This document shows, in pieces, positions 10,951 through 32,298 of a stretch of 64,000 bases of DNA. Within the stretch, counting starts at the first letter, position 1. Each line of letters opens with the position of its first letter. A model generated the notes under the pieces. That model was not told the origin of the DNA, searched no databases, and saw nothing but the letters and a program-made list of their open reading frames with translations. Made by a program: the position numbers and the translations under genes. This DNA is from an uncultured Planctomycetaceae bacterium (lineage in GTDB: Bacteria > Planctomycetota > Phycisphaerae > SM23-33), in NCBI GenBank assembly GCA_964472875.1, contig CAYYMD010000005.1, positions 7,670-71,669 on the forward strand, written 5' to 3'.

Positions 10951-11377
10951 CTTAACCCTGTCGCAATGGGTCATAGCAACCGGAGATTTTACCTGCTGCG
11001 CTTCGGTCTGCGCCTGACTGGGGTGATAACTACTATCCGGGGCCCTGTTGCATCTCAGAGTTGAGACCGCGATTTGCCGCTGTACTTGCGGCGGAGGCGC
11101 TTAAGTATATCCAGGGCGGCCATTTGGATAACCGACGACCTGCCCGCCGACTGGTTTTCAAAAAGGTTGGCAGGCGGGTTCGTTCCATATGCTTAGATTT
11201 TTTTTGGCGCGGTAAGTCAAGTCGCGAGGCAGTTGCGCCAGCTGCACAATGGTGCTGCAATGGCCGATGGTTATAGCCGTGACCAAGTCACGAAAACGGT
11301 CCTATGCAGGTCCGACGAAGTGCTTGCATATGTGGTGAAAAAATTTTTTAACTTCCGCCGGAATCTCGCCGATGGTG

Positions 11378-17400: not shown

Positions 17401-17585
17401 AGCGACATGGCGGTGAGAAAACCGTTACACTCGAATTGTATGGAAATTTCGGATCAGTTTGCGAGTGCGACCTTCTTGAACGTGATGGGCAACCTCTGTC
17501 CAAAAATGCGGCCGGAAAAGTGTCGCTGGCTATCCGTCCCTACGAGATAAAGACACTGAGATTCACCAACGGACCTGCCGACTGA
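14406..17585 (+). CDS. Glycoside hydrolase family 38 alpha-mannosidase
   Basis: 1059 aa. The N-terminal catalytic pattern is LTGNSHLDLVYLWT...FTQSQPHMY...WVEPDCNLISGES, with QFHDSLPGT in the central domain. No signal peptide is apparent, so it is likely cytoplasmic. Confidence 0.85.
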   Translation: MKQTKGIEKIIDKWRGLIKSKKRAIISFEEIIQGRIESLKPWIYPDSEPLEGWTYRQFKYDRHGNRTFVDDEWRPIRPGDTWGGEDMSAYFRCKASIPERFRGRTVVLKLYFSGDGLLRVNGDAFHGLDPFRDTIFMTENAQGDECFDLEAESYIMWHFGEGTVKHFEISQWAVFDRELHEAYWDLKTVFNLMMSEKTNPDVVNFIRKHLDDSTRHIDQRCEDGATVREMAVRARKIIREKVYSCDSFRHEGLLHLTGNSHLDLVYLWTHAEFIRKIGRSHATALRLMERYPEYIFTQSQPHMYDQMKRHYPELFEQVKRRIAEGRWEAIGAFWVEPDCNLISGESMVRQIMHGVAYYQKEFGVTPRTAWIPDVFGNAWTMPQILVKCGLEFFVTHKMSIWNDTNAWTKNVFWWEGPDGSRIFSHVPTTHFIGTAEPDHLQEHWERFSDKVEIGESLYCYGWGDGGGGPDAEMLEYCCRYRSLPGLVPCRNSTVEDALESMRERAENADIPVINDELYLEEHRGVNTTKGRLKKLNRYCEHLYRKAELFNCFCRVAYPAERLRQGWREVLVNQFHDSLPGTHDSRSYLDILESYDRAVAIGRQELQNALEDIISQIDTDGPGRAAVIFNSLPAPRDTRVSIPCELPAATVLDRRGNEIPCQFSTDYQTHQRTLEFEVTDLPPVGYEVYHILDKQEGTHRPRLECYYGDNGEIILNNEHIRAVIDQEGCIASLTDKSTGREFIDTRRRANVFKLYEDIPGTFDAWDIEEHYTSHEFDMGTAKVAILEQGPVKAVVEVNRCFRNSQLRQQIVLGAQARRLDFCTWVDWKEQRKLLKVRFHTNIRSRTATYDIPYGNIERPTTRNNSYEAAKFEVPGHEWMDLSQADRGLSLLTDSKYGYEALGCMISLSLLKGPLYPDPTSDQEEHYFTYSLYPHADGWRRTDTIGQAADLNDPVEVVMSEPHTGQAPTRRSFLRMQGEGVTLEAVKQAENADGVIVRVVERHGGEKTVTLELYGNFGSVCECDLLERDGQPLSKNAAGKVSLAIRPYEIKTLRFTNGPAD

Positions 17586-17752
17586 CACCCACGAGACTCC
17601 GCCTTCAATAATAACCATAACCAAAACTAATAAATCTTTTCCGAGCCGATTGCTCTGGCTGTAAATGACTGCCGCAAGGGGAATAAACTGCCATGGTTTA
17701 AAACCACGTAGCATTGCTGCTACGGATTTCGCCCGTCCGCCTGCTCCAAAGT

Positions 17753-18420
17753 GGTTTGGGATTTGGGTATTTGGGATTTGTTTCGCATTTCGATATCAGT
17801 ATTTCGGATTTTCATATTCTCCCATCCGGCCGTGTTTGTAAGCGCCCACTGTCAAGGGGGGGATGTTTTTTTCAATATGTTGCGTTATTATCCCCGCATT
17901 CACATGCGACAGCGGGGGCTTACTAAAATTACAAAAAACGCGTGCGGCCCTGCGGCCGAATTACGAATGACGAAATTCGAATGTCGAATCAATGACGAAT
18001 GCACGAATTACGAAACAAATCCGAAATCCCGACGGGACCTTTGGGCCCGGAGGGGCCGTCGGTCCGAAATTCGAAATATGTTTATCCCCTGCATCCCTGC
18101 TGATTTGCGCGCGCAGTTTGTCCGCGGAATCGGCCATAGCGCCCGAAAAAATAAAATTTTTTATGTCTTCTCCCGGCCGTGGGTTACGAATTCCGCATAC
18201 GCCCAACAGGCGCGGTTTGCGCGCGCAAAGGCGTTGTTTCGTCCAAGTATGGAGGGAAAAGTAAAAACTTAAAACTAAAAACTGAAAACTTAAATGCTGC
18301 CCGTCGCCATGGTGAAAAATGACCAATCCCGGCGCGCCGGGATTCCCAATGTCCAATTTCCTTACAAAAAACGCCGCGGGGCGGGCGGATCTGAAATCTC
18401 AAATTTTAAATTTCAAATTC
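17753..18420. repeat. Cluster of degenerate short tandem motifs, palindromes and an inverted 12-mer in a gene-free region
   Basis: Read directly. TTTGGGA/T occurs x3 (17754-17779) and ATTTCG x3 (17785-17808). CGAAT/GAAAT-type units run across 17961-18080. The 12-mer CGAAACAAATCC (18011-18022) is the reverse complement of 17777-17788. TTTGCGCGCGCAAA is a 14-nt palindrome at about 18207-18220. AAAACTNA occurs x4 (18262-18292). GAAATCTCAAATTTTAAATTTCAAATTC lies at 18392-18420. Confidence 0.6.
18325..18344. repeat. Perfect 20-nt palindrome AATCCCGGCGCGCCGGGATT (dispersed element, best copy)
   Basis: Read directly. The sequence is self-complementary over all 20 nt. Confidence 0.75.
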
Positions 18421-18833
18421 TTGTCTGCTGTCTGCCTCGAAAAAGCGCGGCTTTTGAGAGGATCGCGGGTCAGAATTATGATTAACCACTGCAATACATA
18501 CACTTACGAATTTCTGTCAAGGGTAAAAAACGCGCAATATCGCGCAAAAAGGTCTAAAAACCTGCAACAGCCCGGCACAACGCGCAAAAAACCGGCAATT
18601 CCTGAAATAACTTACAAAGACGAGCAATACAGGCCCGAGTTCCAAGTTCCTCGCAAACGTCTTGAACGCACAGCCGGGCGAAAATACTTGCTCCCTGCGC
18701 TGAATTTGTTAATTTTACATTAATCGCAAATGCTCGTATCGGTAACGGGCCCGCCGGTACGAGAATTATTCACGGGGCCTGAATAAATTGGCGATAAAAT
18801 GGTTCGTTTAACCGCCGCCAGGAAAGGTCAATT

Positions 18834-21335
18834 ATGTCAATTATAAACACACTATCCCGTTTTGCTTTGTCACATGTTTTGTTTCTCGGCCTGCTGACCG
18901 TCTCTTTCATGGCCACGGGTCTGCGTGCGGATACGTCGCTGCTGCCGATGGAATCGCCCCAACGGGGATTCGTCAGCACGCGTCCGGCCGAGACGTGGGA
19001 GCAGGGGCTCCTGACGGGCAACGGCACCGTCGGGGCGAACGTCTTCGCCCGCCCGCTGGAGGAGACGATAATATTCACGCACGAGCGCCTGTTCCTGCCG
19101 CAGGGCGACCCGCACATGCCTCCGCCTCAGATGGGCACGCGATTGTACGACATCCGCCGTCTGATAGACCGCGGGCTCTACAGCCAGGCCGCGCAACTGG
19201 CGTCCGACCTGTCCGAACAGGACGGTTTCATGTACCCCGACCCGTTTGTGCCGGCCTTTGATATGAAAATAGACATGACATCGCCGGGGACGTCAGCGAT
19301 CGAGCGCTACCGTCGCGGCGTGAATTTCGAAAACGGCCTGGCCGGTGTGCAGTGGAAGGACGGCAGGGGCGTGTTCGAGCGGCGAATGATGGTTTCCCGG
19401 GCAGACGACCTTGCGGCGATGCAGATACGCGCGTCCAAGGCCGGTTCTATCCACTGCACCCTGGATCTGACGCCCCGCCGGCCCAGCGAGAAAATCGATG
19501 AGAAAAAACGCCGCCAGTCCGTCCGGCGTTTCGAAAATTCAATTAAGGACCTTGAGATTACCGCCGACGGCCGCACGCTGACCTTCCGCAACACCTTCGC
19601 AAACGCCTACCCGGGCAGCGTTCAAGCCGTCGAGGGCGTGGTGCACGTCCGCACGCAGGGCGGAAAGGTCACCACGAAGGACCGGACGATGATCATCGAC
19701 GGGGCGGACGAGGTTACGCTGCTTGTCGACGTGAATGTTATTTACAGGAAGGACCATTCGCGCATCGAGCAGACAAAATCGCGCCTGGCCGGCATAAAGC
19801 ACGATTTCGAGACTCTGCTGGAGCGGCATGCGCGTATCCACGGCGAGATGTTCAACCGGATGCGCCTGGAAATCGGCGGCGAGCATCACGACTGGAGCAC
19901 CGAGAAACTGCTGGCCGCCTCGACGAACGAAAAACTCTCGCGGACGCTGATTGAGAAGGAATTCGACGCCGCCCGCTACAACATAATCTGCAGCACGGGC
20001 GAGCTGCCGCCGGTGCTTCAGGGAATCTGGGCGGGGACATACGTCCCGTCGTGGGCGAGCGACTTTACGCACAACGGCAACGTTCCTTCGGCCATCGCCG
20101 CAATGCTCATGGGCAACACGCCGGAACTGATGCTCGCCTACACCAATTACATGGAATCCATCGTCGGCGACATGCGGGTCAACGCCAGGAACATTTTCGG
20201 CGCCCGCGGCATCGTCCTGCCCTCGCGGAGCAGCGCGCGGGCGTTCAACAACGCACTTGCGCCGAGGTTCGCCGGCGGATTCTGGGTGGCCGGCGCGCCG
20301 TGGGCGGCGCACTTCTTCTACGACTACTACCTCTACACCGGCGACAAAAAGTTCCTCGCCGAACACGCCCTGCCGTTCATGGAGGAGGCGGCCGTGTTCT
20401 TCGAAGATTACCTTTACGAAGGCCCCGACGGAAAATACGTGTTCAATCCCACCCAGTCGCCGGAAAACACACCCTCCAACACGCACTCGCAGGCCACGTT
20501 CAACGCGACGATGTCGGTGGCGGCCGTGAAGCAACTGCTGCGAAACCTCATCGAGGCCTCGCAGACGCTCGGCGTCAACGAGGACAAAATCCCCCAATGG
20601 CGCAACATGCTTGCCAAGATGCCGCCTTACCTCATCGACGAGGAACTCGGCGTGGTGAAGGAATGGCTGACGCCAAAACTCAAGGACAATCTCAACCACC
20701 GCCATTCGTCCCAGCTTTACCCCGTGTATTACACCATGTCGGAGGAAGTGGCCGGCAGCGAAAAACTGCAAAACGCCTTCAAGCGTATCGTCGAGATAAA
20801 ACTCGAGAAGCACTGGAAAGCCAAGCGCTCGGGTTTCATGTCCTTCGGCCTGGTGCAGCTTGGCCAGGCGGCCACGACTCTGGGCGACGGCGATCTGGCC
20901 TACCGCTGCCTGCGGCAACTGGTCAACCGCTACTGGCTGAACAACCTGGCGTCCATGCACAATCACCGCTCGCTGCTGAACATGGACATAAGCGGCGGCA
21001 TGCCGGCCGTCATTATCAAGATGCTGGTCGCCTCGGCACCGGGCAGGGTGCAACTGCTGCCCGCCCTGCCGAAAGAGTGGCCCGCCGGCGCCGTGGAGGG
21101 CGTGTTGTGCCGCGGCCAAATCGAGGTCGAACGGCTCCGGTGGGGCAAGGACGGCATACGCCTGCGGCTGCGCTCGGGCAAAAAGCAGACCGTCACGCTC
21201 GAAGCGCCACAGTGGGCCGACCGGGCCGAGGTGGCCGAAGGCGACGCCACTGTGAAGGCCGCCGACCGCGACAACGCCTGGCGGCTGTCGCTGCCCGCCG
21301 ACCGGCCGGTCGAACTGACTATATCGGCGAAATAA
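18834..21335 (+). CDS. Glycoside hydrolase family 95-like protein (putative alpha-L-fucosidase type)
   Basis: 833 aa with a signal peptide (HVLFLGLLTVSFMATGLRA). The N-terminal GH95 pattern is W.QGLLTGNGTVGANVF...ETIIFTHERLF. The catalytic-domain patterns are DFTHNGNV...AAMLMGN and FNPTQSPENTP. Confidence 0.75.
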   Translation: MSIINTLSRFALSHVLFLGLLTVSFMATGLRADTSLLPMESPQRGFVSTRPAETWEQGLLTGNGTVGANVFARPLEETIIFTHERLFLPQGDPHMPPPQMGTRLYDIRRLIDRGLYSQAAQLASDLSEQDGFMYPDPFVPAFDMKIDMTSPGTSAIERYRRGVNFENGLAGVQWKDGRGVFERRMMVSRADDLAAMQIRASKAGSIHCTLDLTPRRPSEKIDEKKRRQSVRRFENSIKDLEITADGRTLTFRNTFANAYPGSVQAVEGVVHVRTQGGKVTTKDRTMIIDGADEVTLLVDVNVIYRKDHSRIEQTKSRLAGIKHDFETLLERHARIHGEMFNRMRLEIGGEHHDWSTEKLLAASTNEKLSRTLIEKEFDAARYNIICSTGELPPVLQGIWAGTYVPSWASDFTHNGNVPSAIAAMLMGNTPELMLAYTNYMESIVGDMRVNARNIFGARGIVLPSRSSARAFNNALAPRFAGGFWVAGAPWAAHFFYDYYLYTGDKKFLAEHALPFMEEAAVFFEDYLYEGPDGKYVFNPTQSPENTPSNTHSQATFNATMSVAAVKQLLRNLIEASQTLGVNEDKIPQWRNMLAKMPPYLIDEELGVVKEWLTPKLKDNLNHRHSSQLYPVYYTMSEEVAGSEKLQNAFKRIVEIKLEKHWKAKRSGFMSFGLVQLGQAATTLGDGDLAYRCLRQLVNRYWLNNLASMHNHRSLLNMDISGGMPAVIIKMLVASAPGRVQLLPALPKEWPAGAVEGVLCRGQIEVERLRWGKDGIRLRLRSGKKQTVTLEAPQWADRAEVAEGDATVKAADRDNAWRLSLPADRPVELTISAK

Positions 21336-26410: not shown

Positions 26411-27832
26411 GTGCCGAAGCGCAACTTAATCTGGCTAATAGTAATAGTGGCATTCACGGCCGTGCTGGGGCTGGTTCTCCGCCCGCACCGCTCGGTGAGC
26501 ATTTCCGCGCGGAAGCAGTTCCGGCCCGTCGTGCACACCTACTCGCTGATAAAAGAACATTACGTCGAGCCGATGGACGATGAGGAACTGGCCCGCAAGG
26601 CCATCCGGGCCATGGTCGGCGAACTGGATAAATACTCCACTTACATCCCTCAACAACAGGTGCAGATGGTTCAGGATCACATGCTGGGTCTGGAGCACGG
26701 TTTGGGCCTGGTGTGGGAGTTTGAAGACTCTGCGGTTAAGATACTCGGCCCGCTGCCCGATTCGCCTGCATGGAGGGCGGGAATATGCACCGGAGATGAA
26801 ATCGTGGAAATAGACGGGCAGGCAACAGCCGAACTTGGCAAGGATAAAATTTGCGAACTGCTTGACCCGCAGCAGGACGATCGCGTTGCGCTGACCGTCC
26901 TCCGCGGCGGCCGACAGCAGGAGCACGTTACACTCGCGGCCGATAAGTTTCCCATCCGCACCGTCACGGGTATGTACCGCCGCGACGATTCGCGGTGGGT
27001 GTATCGCCTGCCGCCGGCGGAAGACAAAGGCCTCCCCCGGCGTAAAAATCGTTCGCCCGCATACATCCGCATACGCGAATTCGTCCGCACGACCGGCGAG
27101 CAGTTCCGGCAGGCGGTGCGGCAGGCGCCGCTGCGGGACGGGATGATACTCGACCTGCGCGACAACCCCGGCGGGCTGTTGCCTGTGGCGGTTGAAACGG
27201 CAGATATGTTCCTCCGCGACGGACCCATTGTAACCGTCGTCGAGCGGGACGGGCCGCCGGAGCTATACCGCGCGCACGCCGACGGAACGCTGCCGGACGG
27301 GATGCTGGTGGTGCTGGTTAATTCAGAAACCGCTTCGGCGGCCGAACTGCTGGCCGGGACGCTGCTGGCGGGCGACCGGGCGGTTATTATCGGCGCGCCC
27401 ACGCGGGGCAAACACTGCATCCAGAGCATGTTTCCGCTCGGCGACGAGATGGGACAGTTGAACCTGACAACTTCGCGGTTTTTCGTTGGCGAATACGAAC
27501 CCGAGGAAAAATCCACAACGCCGCAGGCGGATAACGATACCACCGCCGAAGAAACAAGTCACACCGACGAACCTGTCACGCCCGACTTGCTGGTGGAAGT
27601 CACGGACGAACAACTCGAAAAAATACGATGCTTCCGCCGGCGGCAGGAGGTTCTGCGACGACGGGGCGAAACACGCACCGACGATAACGCGCCACGGCCT
27701 CGGCAGTACGACCCTCAACTGGCCGCGGCCGAGGAACTGTTGAATAATCCCCGAAAATATTATTCCATAATTGCCGAGCGTAAGCGCCGCCGCTCCGAGC
27801 GAACGAGCGAATTAAAGGCAACTTCTGAATGA
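26411..27832 (+). CDS. ctp: S41 family C-terminal processing peptidase with PDZ domain
   Basis: GTG start and an N-terminal TM anchor. The PDZ-like stretch is GICTGDEIVEIDGQ. The tail-specific protease pattern is DLRDNPGGLL...VLVNSETASAAELLAG...GAPTRGK. Confidence 0.85.
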   Translation: MPKRNLIWLIVIVAFTAVLGLVLRPHRSVSISARKQFRPVVHTYSLIKEHYVEPMDDEELARKAIRAMVGELDKYSTYIPQQQVQMVQDHMLGLEHGLGLVWEFEDSAVKILGPLPDSPAWRAGICTGDEIVEIDGQATAELGKDKICELLDPQQDDRVALTVLRGGRQQEHVTLAADKFPIRTVTGMYRRDDSRWVYRLPPAEDKGLPRRKNRSPAYIRIREFVRTTGEQFRQAVRQAPLRDGMILDLRDNPGGLLPVAVETADMFLRDGPIVTVVERDGPPELYRAHADGTLPDGMLVVLVNSETASAAELLAGTLLAGDRAVIIGAPTRGKHCIQSMFPLGDEMGQLNLTTSRFFVGEYEPEEKSTTPQADNDTTAEETSHTDEPVTPDLLVEVTDEQLEKIRCFRRRQEVLRRRGETRTDDNAPRPRQYDPQLAAAEELLNNPRKYYSIIAERKRRRSERTSELKATSE

Positions 27833-28887
27833 CACCCGAAACTAACATCTTCGCCGTGGAGACCAGTTGTGACGAGACGGCGGCTGCGGTCGTGGCCGAG
27901 GGGCGATACGTGCTGTCCGGCGTGGTGGCCAGCCAGGTCGAACTACATGCACGTTATGGCGGCGTAGTGCCCGAGGTCGCATCCCGCGCGCATCTGGAGA
28001 GCGTTAACACGGTTATCGAAAAGGCGCTGGCGGATTCGCAACTTGCCCCGCCTGATATCTCGGCCGTGGCAGTCACCAGCGAACCGGGGCTCATCGGCTC
28101 GCTACTGGTGGGGCTGATGGCCGCAAAGACGCTTGCGTGGGTGTGGGACGTGCCGCTTATCGGCGTCAATCACATTTACGCCCATGCCTACTCGCCGGCG
28201 CTGGACGCCGAGGCGATAGATTATCCGGCCGTGGCGCTGATATGTTCCGGCGGGCACACCGCGCTTTACAAGTGCGACTCGCCGACGGAGATGGAACTGC
28301 TGGGGGCAACGATAGACGACGCGGCCGGCGAGGCGTTTGACAAGGTAGCCGCCGTCCTGAAACTGGGCTACCCGGGCGGCCCGGCCATCGAGCGGGCTGC
28401 GGCCGGCGGCGATGCATCGGCGGTGGATTTTCCGCGGCCGTTGTTGGCGGACAAGTCGCTGGATTTCTCCTTCAGCGGGCTCAAGACCGCCGTATTGTAC
28501 CACATAAACGGCGTGCCAGGCGCGCATCGCAAAAAGAGTAAATTGCCACGGCCGGGTGGAATCGAAAACTTCACCGACAAGCAAATCGCCGACGCGGCCG
28601 CGAGTTTTCAGTCGGCTGTGGTGGACGTTCTGGCGGGCAAACTCCGCCGCGCGGCCGAGACGGTGCGGCCGAAGTCGCTGATTCTCGGCGGGGGCGTCTC
28701 GGCCAACAAGGCACTCCGCGAGGCGGCGGGGCGAATCGCCGAGAAAACCGGCTGCCCGCTGCGCCTGCCGCCGATGCAATTCTGCATAGACAACGCCGCA
28801 ATGGTAGCCGGGCTGGCATGGCACTATCTCCGTGCCGGGCGAACCAACAATCTGGACCTCGAGGCCACACCGACGGTGAGGAGATAG
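27829..28887 (+). CDS. tsaD: tRNA N6-adenosine threonylcarbamoyltransferase
   Basis: Motifs seen are IFAVETSCDETAAAV, GVNHIYAHA and GGVSANKALR. There is a 4-nt overlap with ctp. Confidence 0.95.
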   Translation: MTPETNIFAVETSCDETAAAVVAEGRYVLSGVVASQVELHARYGGVVPEVASRAHLESVNTVIEKALADSQLAPPDISAVAVTSEPGLIGSLLVGLMAAKTLAWVWDVPLIGVNHIYAHAYSPALDAEAIDYPAVALICSGGHTALYKCDSPTEMELLGATIDDAAGEAFDKVAAVLKLGYPGGPAIERAAAGGDASAVDFPRPLLADKSLDFSFSGLKTAVLYHINGVPGAHRKKSKLPRPGGIENFTDKQIADAAASFQSAVVDVLAGKLRRAAETVRPKSLILGGGVSANKALREAAGRIAEKTGCPLRLPPMQFCIDNAAMVAGLAWHYLRAGRTNNLDLEATPTVRR

Positions 28888-28931
28888 GATATAGAGTTTC
28901 CGATTTCGATATAAATATTCGGAGATTGGAT

Positions 28932-29063
28932 TGAAAAACGTAAACGATCATACTGGCCGCCAAATTCGCCTGACTGATGAAAAACTGTCATATTCTCGAA
29001 CATCCCGAGATGAATGAGATGCTTGAGAGCACCAAAACACCTTCATTGTCACAGCTTATTTAA
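28932..29063 (+). pseudogene. Frameshifted remnant of a small conserved gene (RLTDEKLS / HILEHPEM type)
   Basis: One frame reads LKNVNDHTGRQIRLTDEKLSYSRTSRDE*. A +1 shifted frame continues HILEHPEMNEMLESTKTPSLSQLI*. Together these resemble small 'HI.EHPEM'-motif proteins split by a frameshift. This is recognition by memory only. Confidence 0.3.
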
Positions 29064-29091
29064 GGGATTCGCTCAAACGAGGCGGGAAAAC

Positions 29092-29354
29092 ATGGCCGAA
29101 AGAATAAAAGTCTGGGATGGCGCGGAAGCGGATTTTATCGAAGTTCTGTTTTCGATAAGGAAGGTTTCATGCGACGCACGGACAACGAGGCCGTAATGGA
29201 GAGTGTAAGCAAACATCAAAAAGATGCGCCGCCGGAGACCAAACTTGCTCAGCCATTTCCTGATGCGGTGTGCGAGGGGATTTTGACGCGCGGGGCATTT
29301 GCGATTGATTATCGCGGCCGGGCGCTGTTTAATCGTAATTTACAGCAATCATGA
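29092..29354 (+). pseudogene. DUF2283-like small gene, apparently frameshifted
   Basis: MAERIKVWDGAEADFIEVLFS is followed, after a 1-nt frame change near 29155-29165, by (G)FMRRTDNEAVMESV. That matches the DUF2283 pattern (W.d.EaDfLEVlFs...G.m..T.n.avm). The downstream part has diverged. Confidence 0.35.
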
Positions 29355-31063
29355 GTTATCTCGTACTGGCAAGAAAATATCGCAGCGCCACGTTCGAGGA
29401 GGTTATCGGCCAGGAACCCATCGCGCGGACGCTGAGCAACGCCATCAAAGAAGACAGGGTGGCGCACGCATACCTGTTCGCCGGCGCCCGCGGCGTGGGC
29501 AAGACCACCACCGCGCGAATACTGGCCAAGTGCCTCAACTGCATGTCGGTCGAGGAGCCCACCACCGAACCGTGCAACAAGTGCGAGGCGTGCGAGGCGA
29601 TATCCCGCGGCGATGACATAGACGTGGTGGAGATAGACGGCGCCTCCAACCGCGGCATAGACGAAATCCGCGAACTCCGCGCAAACGCCATCTACCGCCC
29701 CGCCCGCAGCCGGTACAAGATTTATTACATCGACGAAGTCCACATGCTCACCCGCGAGGCGTTCAACGCGCTGCTGAAGACCCTTGAGGAGCCGCCAGAG
29801 CACGTGAAGTTCATCTTCGCCACCACCGAACCTGAGAAGGTCCTGCCCACAATAACCTCCCGCTGCCAGCGGTTCGACTTCGCCGACATCCCGACCCGCC
29901 TGATAGCCGACCACCTCAAGGCAATCTGCGAGAAAGAGAAGATAAAGGCCGACGACGAGGCCCTGTTCCGCATCGCACGCGCCGCGGCCGGGTCCATGCG
30001 AGACGGGCTGAGTCTGTTGGACCAGATAATCGCCTCCGATGCGGAAATAACGCCCGAGGCCGTCGTCTCCATCCTCGGCACGCCGCCGGACCAGAAGGTG
30101 CTGTCCATCGTCGAGGCGATCGCCGCCGGCGACTCAGCGGCTGCGCTGGGCGAACTGAACAAGGTGCTAAGCGGCAGCGTAACGCTGTCATCGGTTGCTA
30201 AGGCCCTGGGCGATGCGTTCCGCAATATGATGCTGGCGGCCACATGCGGTGGCGACAGCGACCTTATTGAACTGCCCGATACGCAAAAACAGGCCACGGC
30301 GGAACTCGCCGGGCGATTCTCGCTGCCGGTGCTGGTGCAGGCGGTCTCGGTGGTACAGAACGCCGCATGGCGGATGCGCAGTTCGGCGCTGGCGAGGGCG
30401 CTGCTGGAGGCGGCGGTGGTGCGACTGGCCGAGGCCGACAAGTTCGTCGACCCGGAAAGTCTCATCGAGCGGCTACAGGAATTATCCGGCGGCCAAAAAA
30501 AAAATTCCCCACTAAAAGGTAAACCCTCTCCCGCAGCCACTGCCGGCTCACGCAGCGCCAAAAAAGAATCCTCTACCGGCCGTTACCTCGCAAACGAGCA
30601 ACCCAAACCCCCGCCACAGCTTCAGTGGGAACAGACCTGGCTTAGCGCTAACTGGGAAACTCTTATCGAAGCGCTGGCGGCCGTGGGCGAAAAGCAGGTG
30701 GCCGGGGCGATACGCCCTGCCCGTCTGGTGGAACTGGATGGCGAGACGGCCACGCTCGGCTTCGACAAGGACCATGAAATTCTACGGCGGCGATGCGACG
30801 GTGCGCTTAAGGCGCCTATCTGCAAAGCCCTTTCGCGACTGGCGGGCCGGCGTATAGAATGTAAATTCGTCTCCACGGCCACAAACGGCTCCGGCGAAGG
30901 CAAACGGGTGTTCGGTGGGCTGAGCACGGCAGAAAAAAACGGCATAGTAAAAGATCCTCACGTGCAGAAGGTCCTGGCGATGTTCGAAGCCGACGTCGTG
31001 GACATAACGAAGACCCAACCCTCGGCACCCGACACCGCCGGGGACAACACGCAGGACGACTAA
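29351..31063 (+). CDS. dnaX: DNA polymerase III subunits gamma/tau
   Basis: AAA+ motifs are HAYLFAGARGVGKTTTARILAK, the zinc module CNKCEACEAI, YYIDEVHML and LLKTLEEPPEHVKFIFATTE. The full-length product is 570 aa (tau). Confidence 0.95.
   Translation: MSYLVLARKYRSATFEEVIGQEPIARTLSNAIKEDRVAHAYLFAGARGVGKTTTARILAKCLNCMSVEEPTTEPCNKCEACEAISRGDDIDVVEIDGASNRGIDEIRELRANAIYRPARSRYKIYYIDEVHMLTREAFNALLKTLEEPPEHVKFIFATTEPEKVLPTITSRCQRFDFADIPTRLIADHLKAICEKEKIKADDEALFRIARAAAGSMRDGLSLLDQIIASDAEITPEAVVSILGTPPDQKVLSIVEAIAAGDSAAALGELNKVLSGSVTLSSVAKALGDAFRNMMLAATCGGDSDLIELPDTQKQATAELAGRFSLPVLVQAVSVVQNAAWRMRSSALARALLEAAVVRLAEADKFVDPESLIERLQELSGGQKKNSPLKGKPSPAATAGSRSAKKESSTGRYLANEQPKPPPQLQWEQTWLSANWETLIEALAAVGEKQVAGAIRPARLVELDGETATLGFDKDHEILRRRCDGALKAPICKALSRLAGRRIECKFVSTATNGSGEGKRVFGGLSTAEKNGIVKDPHVQKVLAMFEADVVDITKTQPSAPDTAGDNTQDD
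30495..30504 (+). promoter_or_regulatory. A10 homopolymer in dnaX: candidate recoding (slippage) site for a gamma-like short product
   Basis: There are ten consecutive A (codons CAA AAA AAA AAT, residues 382-385). The -1 frame reads TTC CCC ACT AAA AGG TAA, with the stop at 30520-30522. The +1 frame reads CCC CAC TAA, with the stop at 30513-30515. Confidence 0.5.
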
Positions 31064-31142
31064 AATTAATATTGAGAGATGAGGTTCGTATTCGCGAAAT
31101 CCCATCGGGATAAGTTCGCGGCTGAAATAATCAGGAGTAAAA

Positions 31143-31508
31143 ATGTTCGGTGACATAGGCAAGATGATGAAAATGGTGGGGCAGATGAAAAAGCGACTGC
31201 CCGAGATGCGCGAAAAGATGGCCAACAGCGAGTTCACGGCCGAGATAACCGCACCGGAGTCTCAGCGAGGCACCACCGGCACGGTCAGGGCGACAGTCAG
31301 CGGCAGGGGCACACTGCTGGATTTGCGGATAGAGCCGGAAGTTCTCGACCGTGACGACACGCCGGCCCAGATGGCTGAAATGCTCGAGGACATCACTGCC
31401 GCGGCCGTAAAGGCCGCTCAGGAAAAGGCCGCCGACGCCATAAAAGAAGCCATGAACGAACTCACCGGCGGCGCCGAACTACCCCCCGGCCTTTCTGACA
31501 TAATTTGA
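31143..31508 (+). CDS. ybaB: YbaB/EbfC family nucleoid-associated protein
   Basis: 121 aa. It begins MFGDIGKMMKMVGQMKKRLPEMREKM and sits in the canonical position between dnaX and recR. Confidence 0.9.
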   Translation: MFGDIGKMMKMVGQMKKRLPEMREKMANSEFTAEITAPESQRGTTGTVRATVSGRGTLLDLRIEPEVLDRDDTPAQMAEMLEDITAAAVKAAQEKAADAIKEAMNELTGGAELPPGLSDII

Positions 31509-31524
31509 TGATTACTATAAAGTC

Positions 31525-32124
31525 ATGGCAGATTATCCCAGCACAATCCAGCGTTTGATAGACCAGTTCGGGCGGCTGCCGGGCATCGGCGCCCGCACGG
31601 CCGAGCGGCTGGCGTTTTTTCTGCTGCGGTCGGAAAGACAGGAGGCGTTCGCCCTGGCCGAGGCCATCCGCGACATCAAGACCAAGGTCCGCCCGTGCAC
31701 GGTTTGCTTCAACATCGCCGAGGATGACCTGTGCAACATCTGCGCCGACCAGCAGCGGGACAAGTCCACCATCTGCGTGGTCGAGCAGCCCAAGGACCTG
31801 CTGGCACTGGAATCGACCGGCGCATACAACGGCGTGTATCACGTGCTGATGGGACACATAGCCCCGCTGGAGGGCGTCGGTCCGGAGGACCTGACCATCG
31901 ATGCGCTGGTGAAGCGCGTAAAGGCAGGCGGCGTGAAGGAGATTCTCCTGGCCACCAACCCCACAGTCTCAGGCGACAGCACGGCACTGCACATATCCGA
32001 GCGACTGGCAGACACGGCCGTAAACGTCACTCGCCTGGCGCGGGGACTGCCCACCGGCGGGCAGATAGAATACTCCAACAAATCCATCCTCGCCGACGCC
32101 ATAAGCAACCGGCGCAAAATCTGA
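31525..32124 (+). CDS. recR: Recombination protein RecR
   Basis: It has the HhH motif (LPGIGARTAERLAFFLL), the C4 zinc finger (CTVCFNIAEDDLCNICAD) and a Toprim domain (ICVVEQPKDL...LATNPTVSGDSTA). Confidence 0.95.
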   Translation: MADYPSTIQRLIDQFGRLPGIGARTAERLAFFLLRSERQEAFALAEAIRDIKTKVRPCTVCFNIAEDDLCNICADQQRDKSTICVVEQPKDLLALESTGAYNGVYHVLMGHIAPLEGVGPEDLTIDALVKRVKAGGVKEILLATNPTVSGDSTALHISERLADTAVNVTRLARGLPTGGQIEYSNKSILADAISNRRKI

Positions 32125-32211
32125 TAAAATAATTTATCTGCGACCGCACCTCTGTGGCTGCCTGCAACGCTTGACAGTTTCGCGCCGGTGGGATATCGTC
32201 GTTTACAATAC

Positions 32212-32298
32212 GCCCGGGTGGCGGAATTGGCAGACGCGTCAGGTTGAGGGCCTGGTGGCCTATAAAAGGCCGTGCTGGTTCGAATCCAGTCCCGGGCA
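32212..32298 (+). tRNA. tRNA-Leu (anticodon GAG)
   Basis: Folded by hand. The acceptor is GCCCGGG/CCCGGGC plus A. The anticodon loop is TTGAGGG. The long variable arm is TGGCCTATAAAAGGCCG. The T arm is CTGG-TTCGAAT-CCAG. Confidence 0.95.

Follow-up and report, generated by a model that had tools for sequence, protein, structure and literature searches.

Two forms of the DnaX protein can be made from one bacterial gene, the full-length tau and a shorter gamma, which by definition is a DnaX with domains I-III and without the polymerase-binding domain. In Escherichia coli, dnaX undergoes -1 ribosomal frameshifting on the heptamer A_AAA_AAG, with a Shine-Dalgarno (SD)-like element and a stem-loop. 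In this study we analyzed a run of ten A's (A10) in the dnaX gene of an uncultured Planctomycetaceae bacterium (Phycisphaerae; SM23-33), located in a window of 64,000 nucleotides (nt), by which we mean the whole stretch of DNA analyzed (GCA_964472875.1, contig CAYYMD010000005.1, positions 7,670-71,669, forward strand). The comparison of this locus with its relatives makes it likely that programmed transcriptional slippage at the A10 run, of the kind known from Thermus thermophilus dnaX, is the main route to a shift, and that the one gene probably gives tau (570 aa) plus gamma-like products (387-390 aa).

Several systems have been described with which the locus can be compared. The dnaX gene of T. 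thermophilus carries a run of nine A's, produces mRNAs with extra A's, has stops in both alternative frames and yields tau and gamma at a ratio of 1:1 (Larsen et al. 2000, as described in PMC1088944 and PMC5009743). RNA polymerase (RNAP), whose RNA:DNA hybrid measures 9-10 bp, slips efficiently in vivo when it meets 9 A or T in a row (PMC5009743). Slippage is stimulated by an upstream stem-loop, an upstream hairpin being an aid to shorter motifs (Penno et al. 2015, cited in PMC5009743), while a run length conserved among homologs is regarded as the signature of purposeful slippage (PMC1088944). A reversed arrangement, in which dnaX is split into two open reading frames (ORFs) and recoding is needed for tau, was described by Antonov et al. 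2013 (PMC3711429), with nine split dnaX genes having a 10-A run in Chlorobium, Prosthecochloris, Pelodictyon, Flavobacterium, Cytophaga, Capnocytophaga and Coraliomargarita (PMC3711429, Supplementary Fig. S3), so that the groups with a 10-A dnaX are the Chlorobi, Bacteroidetes and Verrucomicrobia (PMC3711429). The gamma of Caulobacter crescentus results from ClpXP proteolysis of tau (bioRxiv 10.1101/2022.11.10.516041).

Like Thermus dnaX, the present gene encodes tau in a single zero-frame ORF, carries a long A-run on the sense strand and has near stops in both alternative frames, and its predicted short products would lack the C-terminal part with no ribosomal stimulators needed; unlike Thermus dnaX with its 9 A's, the run in the window has 10, and the host is a mesophile-type Phycisphaerae planctomycete known from metagenome bins, for which slippage is predicted from sequence. 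With the reversed two-ORF genes (PMC3711429) it shares an A10, usually followed by G, at the same position in the gene, and 11 planctomycete relatives (e.g., L020, L025, L032 and L038, the L numbers being our labels for loci) have exactly that arrangement; the window gene differs from it in having tau in the zero frame, so a frameshift scan such as GeneTack would miss it. The window therefore shows the Thermus architecture (tau in frame 0) along with the 10-A motif of the reversed group, and its relatives show both architectures. Common to this gene and E. coli dnaX, apart from being the same gene, are a gamma-like truncation past domain III, an in-frame A-rich heptamer and a near -1 stop, whereas the planctomycete gene lacks both a conserved SD-like element upstream and a hairpin downstream, its run is longer than needed and conserved in length, and the +1 frame is closed as well. 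Caulobacter is similar in having two DnaX forms from one gene, but there the process is post-translational and no slippery sequence is needed; proteolysis of the ClpXP type could serve the approximately 10% of relatives without an A-run. The taxa in the figure of PMC3711429 do not include Planctomycetota, a phylum that occurs in this paper just in the genome-count table, and a full-text literature search found no report of dnaX slippage for Planctomycetes. Systems of this kind have thus been described before, in Thermus and in a few further groups of bacteria, and what is new is the Planctomycetota case and a populated comparative series.

Results

The A10 run and its predicted products

The features of the locus are listed in Table 1. 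The gene is dnaX: its protein scored 433 bits with the NCBIfam model dnaX_nterm (cut-off 250), and Pfam placed DNA_pol3_delta2 at aa 21-179, the ATPase lid at 185-228 and gamma/tau domain III (PF12169) at 234-375. The region after the run resembles the polymerase-binding domain V of E. coli tau, as a profile built from 30 dnaX C-termini matched the PDB entry 5fku_E, "DNA polymerase III subunit tau" (144 residues), with E = 8e-4 over profile positions 40-158, and gave a weaker match to 2aya_A, also tau; we take both entries to be the C-terminal domain V of E. coli tau, the binder of the polymerase alpha subunit. Since the sequence after the run is homologous to that domain, products truncated at the run would consist of domains I-III without the polymerase-binding C-terminal domain, and would therefore be gamma-like.

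Table 1. Positions in the window of dnaX, the A10 run and the associated elements
Feature	Position	Strand	Remark
dnaX	29351..31063	+	sole long ORF here; 570 codons plus stop, zero frame = full-length tau
Clamp-loader domains I-III (aa 1-375)	29351..30475	+	common to tau and predicted gamma-like products
A10 run (template T10), proposed slippage site	30495..30504	+	codons 382-385 (CAA AAA AAA AAT)
A_AAA_AAA heptamer in zero frame	30496..30502	+	formal -1 ribosomal slippery site inside the run
TAA, +1 frame	30513..30515	+	reads AAA AAA AAA ATT CCC CAC TAA
TAA, -1 frame	30520..30522	+	reads AAA AAA AAA TTC CCC ACT AAA AGG TAA
Tau-only C-terminal region (aa 386-570)	30506..31060	+	Pro/Ala/Ser-rich linker, then domain V-like domain
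Domain V-like part of tau C-terminus (about aa 426-548)	30626-30994	+	profile match to 5fku_E

The run begins 7 codons past the end of domain III, at codon 382, and the tau C-terminal domain follows further on. The surrounding sequence reads GGC CAA AAA AAA AAT TCC CCA CTA AAA GGT AAA, with the first A at codon position 2, and past the run the zero frame goes on for 186 codons to the tau stop. The TAA of the +1 frame is also the end of a listed 88-aa ORF (30249..30515), and the TAA of the -1 frame would also end the product of a -1 ribosomal shift. The first-pass annotation had placed an A10 at these codons of a GC-rich dnaX, past domains I-III and before the tau-specific region, with a nearby TAA in each alternative frame, and all of this agrees with the sequence, the ORF, the end of Pfam domain III at aa 375 and the match of the C-terminal profile to tau.

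Translation in silico of transcripts with A10 and A13 gave proteins of 570 aa and 571 aa, respectively, the latter being a tau with an extra Lys. With A11 the product has 390 aa and ends in ...QKKKFPTKR, and with A8 it has 389 aa, both stopping at the -1-frame TAA; with A12 it has 388 aa (...QKKKIPH) and with A9 387 aa (...KKIPH), both stopping at the +1-frame TAA. The same annotation had expected shifted products of about 385-390 aa and a shifted-frame end of KKKFPTKR or similar, which the in silico products reproduce. The predicted trans-frame C-termini of the short products are ...SGGQKKKFPTKR and ...SGGQKKKIPH, and a synonymous AAG version of the A10 run, encoding the same amino acids, is AAGAAGAAGA.

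Expectation by chance

The GC content is 56.9% for the window and 61.8% for dnaX. The A10 run is the longest homopolymer of the 64 kb, and about 0.011 A-runs of at least 10 would be expected in the window by a simple base-composition model. Other A or T runs of at least 9 were absent from the window and numbered 5 in 477 kb of the relatives' loci. The second-longest homopolymer of the window is a single T8, at 11198-11205. Both alternative frames are closed within 6 codons in the window, which is true of 3% of the positions in the N-terminal part of its own dnaX. As judged from the comparison of loci, the A10 run in dnaX is not due to chance, its conservation in relatives being the decisive evidence.

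Conservation of the run in relatives

One genome per species was scanned, giving 80 loci with a DnaX relative, all of them from Planctomycetota metagenome bins including Phycisphaerae and with 40-72% protein identity, of which 75 reached far enough to be testable. An independent scan of metagenome contigs provided a replication set of 75 testable loci (closest relative, 73% identity). All relatives are metagenome bins or contigs, and the loci are mutually related, so the counts given below are not counts of independent events. In 66 of the 75 testable genome loci, a run of 9-11 A follows domain III at the corresponding place, from a few up to some tens of codons behind it, and the replication set had a run in 69 of 75 loci, 62 of these 69 not being duplicates of the genome set. 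Including the window, the genome loci comprised 60 with A10, 6 with A9 and 1 with A11, and the metagenome loci 59 with A10, 6 with A9, 3 with A11 and 1 with A8. The run was thus exactly A10 in about 87% of the run-bearing loci across both sets, and when both sets were pooled, about 90% of about 150 dnaX genes had retained a run in this place. The conservation in related genomes that the first-pass annotation had proposed to check was therefore found, for the run as well as for the out-of-frame stops.

The conservation concerns the nucleotide run and not the protein. The DNA flanking the run is GC-rich and unalignable between loci, and the stretch between run and stops has diverged beyond alignment. 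Among the 67 loci, the first A falls on codon position 2 in 48, on position 3 in 14 and on position 1 in 5; the run is preceded by C, G or T and followed by G (49 loci), T (9) or C (9). The encoded residues vary accordingly, as Q/E-K-K-K/N or K-K-K, while the ten A's are constant. In the N-terminal parts of the same genes, Lys is encoded by AAG 657 times and by AAA 200 times (AAA 23%), with 14 AAG and 4 AAA in the window dnaX. Since AAG is preferred, a Lys patch kept for its own sake would be mostly AAG.

Stops in the alternative frames

For each frame, the distance to the first stop was counted from the codon holding the last A, and positions in the N-terminal domains of the same genes were used as background. 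For the 55 loci with tau in the zero frame, the -1 frame was closed within 12 codons in 96% at the run in comparison to 12% of the background, and the +1 frame was closed within 5 codons in 82% in comparison to 14%. Both non-tau frames were closed within 12 codons in 94% of 66 loci versus 4% of the background, and in 65 of the 66 the both-frame closure distance at the run fell in the lowest quarter of the locus' own background positions. In the replication set, closure of both frames took at most 18 codons in 94% of 62 loci (median, 10). By these counts the out-of-frame stops behind the run are conserved too.

Relatives with tau in the -1 frame

In 12 genome loci the zero frame ends 1-11 codons past the A10 and a long ORF goes on in the -1 frame, and the -1 ORFs of all 12 are homologous to the zero-frame C-termini of other loci (E 1e-7 to 1e-67). 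One of them, L049, was rejected as a flip, as its frame changes upstream, at or near a G12 tract, which leaves 11 flipped loci (L016, L020, L025, L029, L031, L032, L038, L042, L046, L048 and L066). In each of these 11 the run is exactly A10, and the six loci with A9 all encode tau in the zero frame. By parsimony on a neighbour-joining tree of the N-terminal domains, a quick distance tree on which counts are indicative, at least 7 separate flips took place, and the flipped clades draw on different studies (e.g., L025, L032 and L038). The metagenome set contained three further cases of A10 with tau in the -1 frame. Among its three A11 loci, L116 (run at 1347) and L125 (run at 2094) encode the tau C-terminus in the +1 frame and L101 (run at 1183) encodes it in the -1 frame. 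L116 and L125 each equal an A10 gene plus one A, and may represent genuine variants, heterogeneity of the population or errors of sequencing.

If the flips stemmed from indel errors in A10 genes whose tau is zero-frame, runs of A9 or A11 would be seen instead of A10, and the flips are therefore most likely real, as far as the assembled sequences tell. A flip is tolerable only where shifting is efficient, and in the 11 flipped relatives the shift is needed for the essential tau. The proposal that tau and a gamma-like product come from one gene is thus supported, at the level of sequence, by the conservation of the run, the near stops, the domain V homology and these 11 relatives.

Two loci with frame changes away from the A10 deserve separate mention. 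In L049, the G12 run at about codon 378 of dnaX coincides with the -1 frame change, and the A10 lies about 62 codons further; the change at G12 reflects either a homopolymer assembly error or a second slippery tract. L130 appeared to be a case of tau in the +1/-1 frame and was rejected as a flip, tau being in the ordinary frame at the run itself. Its tblastn match to DnaX shifts frame inside domain III at about nt 2003, about 45 codons upstream of the A10 at 2137, and this frame change is probably an assembly indel.

Search for stimulatory elements

An SD-like 4-mer was present at -22..-5 of the run in 19% of loci versus 15% of control positions, i.e., with no enrichment, and the window has just an AGGA, 15 nt upstream of the run, which is not conserved. 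The 50 nt downstream of the run had a mean folding z of -0.2 over the 67 loci, showing no structure beyond shuffles; in the window, the downstream 60 nt had a minimum free energy of -8.2 kcal/mol (z = +0.57) and the whole 110 nt a z of 1.07, neither being better than shuffles. A nascent-RNA GC hairpin abutting the run was seen by eye in many loci and was rejected as a conserved element, since it was no better than in composition-matched shuffles. The 32 nt upstream of the run are 79% GC in the 67 loci and fold more stably than other windows of the same genes, but the mean fraction of shuffles at least as stable was 0.47, and the end of the hairpin directly adjoins the run in 55% of the real sequences versus 45% of the shuffled ones. 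The window's own upstream stretch (30463-30494) is 62.5% GC with a folding z of 0.08. The upstream GC-richness may be a feature in itself or may reflect the Gly/Ala/Pro codons of the linker.

Discussion

Proposed mechanism

When RNAP transcribes the template T10, the entire 9-10 bp RNA:DNA hybrid would consist of A:T pairs, a run of 10 being expected to fill the whole hybrid, and the nascent RNA could shift by one base or several and still be fully paired. The outcome would be a mixture of mRNAs with A9, A10, A11, A12, A13 and so on, whose ordinary translation would give tau from A10 and A13 and gamma-like short products from A11 and A8 as well as from A12 and A9. From the sequence evidence we infer that slippage would occur at a substantial rate and that the short proteins would accumulate and serve in the clamp loader. 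The fixed length of 10, the free phase, the closure of both frames and the lack of ribosomal stimulators together fit slippage of RNAP.

Alternative explanations

The shift might instead take place on the ribosome, by -1 programmed frameshifting on A_AAA_AAA or by sliding on poly(A), in which case the mRNA would be homogeneous and the gamma-like product would end at the -1-frame TAA. We consider this unlikely as the main route, although the ribosome could contribute to the shift, and a number of observations that favor it weigh at the same time against RNAP slippage. The heptamer A_AAA_AAA lies in the correct frame in the window, such a heptamer is contained in every phase of an A9 or A10, and 38 of 48 phase-1 loci have an in-frame A_AAA_AAG, the slippery site of E. 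coli dnaX, at the end of the run. Ribosome sliding on poly(A) would also enter both frames, and the close stops in both alternative frames suit sliding as well. Against the slippage reading one can also set the use of structured N-terminal domains rather than linker sequence as background for the stop distances, the dependence of the counts that follows from the relatedness of the loci, and its basis in sequence. The same applies to the loci without a run, whose dnaX extends well beyond the homologous position: no A-run of at least 7 was found in 9 of the 75 genome loci (L008, L044, L050, L052, L061, L069, L071, L074 and L080) and no A-run in 6 of the 75 metagenome loci (L084, L085, L093, L106, L122 and L138), and when alternative slippery sites were sought in the nine genome loci, neither an A-run of at least 7 nor an interrupted A-run was found. 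The run is thus, from these sequences, dispensable in some lineages, and because L008, L044 and others sit in otherwise A10-bearing clades, it has been lost repeatedly, in about 6 events on the neighbour-joining tree (a rough distance tree, the count being indicative). A -1 shift on the ribosome is further in keeping with the nearness of the -1 stop in 96% of loci and with the flipped relatives, whose tau in the -1 frame is reachable by such a shift, and the dnaX heptamer alone shifts 14-16% in vitro (bioRxiv 10.1101/2025.10.02.679949). However, a -1 site needs 7 bases in a fixed phase, whereas here the length is held at 10 and the phase varies; the SD-like enrichment upstream and the structure downstream, both needed by the E. 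coli site, are missing; and G is also the commonest base after the run (11 of 19) in those phases in which AAG is out of frame. The +1 frame, never entered by a -1 shift, closes even sooner than the -1 frame, and its closure (82% within 5 codons versus 14%) is unexplained by a pure -1 shift, though sliding on poly(A) might account for it. Bacterial RNAP slips efficiently on 9 or more A or T (PMC5009743), so heterogeneous mRNA is to be expected in any case.

Transcriptional slippage was also weighed against two readings in which the run would not recode the message at all, to both of which we attach very little probability. By one of them, the run has no decoding role and is there by chance or as a Lys-Lys-Lys patch kept for the linker, tau alone being of importance and truncation being noise. 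That the run encodes lysines in a disordered linker and that about 10% of relatives have no run would be in line with it, but it is disfavoured in that AAA is the minority Lys codon (23%) and about 135 diverged loci nevertheless carry the run without interruption, that the residues change with phase and flanks (Q/E-K-K-N/K versus K-K-K) while the DNA is constant, and that it leaves the near stops in both other frames and the flipped relatives unexplained. The other reading, which seems equally improbable, supposes variation at the level of DNA, by replication slippage (phase variation) or assembly errors, so that the flips would be artefacts, or would reflect heritable on/off switching instead of two products per cell. 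Homopolymers are hypermutable, L116 and L125 with A11 and tau in the +1 frame amount to an A10 gene plus one A, and L016 comes from a 2.4-Mb contig that is possibly a long-read assembly. Against this, an indel would give A9 or A11, but the flipped loci all have A10 and the A9 loci all have tau in the zero frame; the flipped loci form coherent clades from different studies; the same arrangement is found in finished genomes of other phyla (PMC3711429); and heritable switching off is implausible for an essential tau.

Gene neighbourhood and other observations in the window

Downstream of dnaX lie ybaB (31143..31508) and recR (31525..32124), and dnaX-ybaB-recR is the usual neighbourhood of dnaX. 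The order of ORFs over 27829-32298 is a likely tsaD, named from its N-terminal sequence alone, a 460-nt gap, dnaX, ybaB, recR and a tRNA-Leu(GAG). Rfam gave no signal recognition particle (SRP) RNA or other RNA family in the 460-nt gap upstream of dnaX, and the Rfam and tRNA scans of the window found tRNA-Phe and tRNA-Leu alone, with no RNA family near dnaX and no tRNA-Lys. Apart from this locus, the region 17500-19000 of the window has a GC content of 48-50% (window, 57%), a cluster of A6 and T6-7 runs and short ORFs alone (173 and 134 aa), and could be foreign or intergenic DNA.

Implications

Standard gene calling gives a single 570-aa DnaX at this locus, and a truncated or "frameshifted" dnaX in about 15% of the relatives, while both DnaX forms are probably made everywhere among these relatives, if the sequence patterns are read as above. 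No new principle is involved. Comparative data that could serve to study the efficiency and tuning of natural RNAP slippage are provided by the constant length of 10, together with the two closed frames and the recurrent flips. With somewhat better than even confidence, we further propose that the A10 cassette is of ancient origin and present in nearly the whole phylum Planctomycetota (Phycisphaerae and Planctomycetia such as Isosphaeraceae), that it possibly has a common origin with the 10-A genes in Verrucomicrobia, Chlorobi and Bacteroidetes, and that its length is tuned to the 9-10 bp hybrid and its efficiency is near 50%, so that the "standard" product, tau or gamma, has been swapped repeatedly (at least 7 flips on a rough tree). 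If this is true, the system would be a natural example of an essential protein whose genomic reading frame can be interchanged in evolution. Whether gamma has a selected function has been described as still open after 30 years (bioRxiv 10.1101/2022.11.10.516041), and the present case adds a large, poorly studied phylum to the organisms keeping two DnaX forms and strengthens the case for a selected function of gamma.

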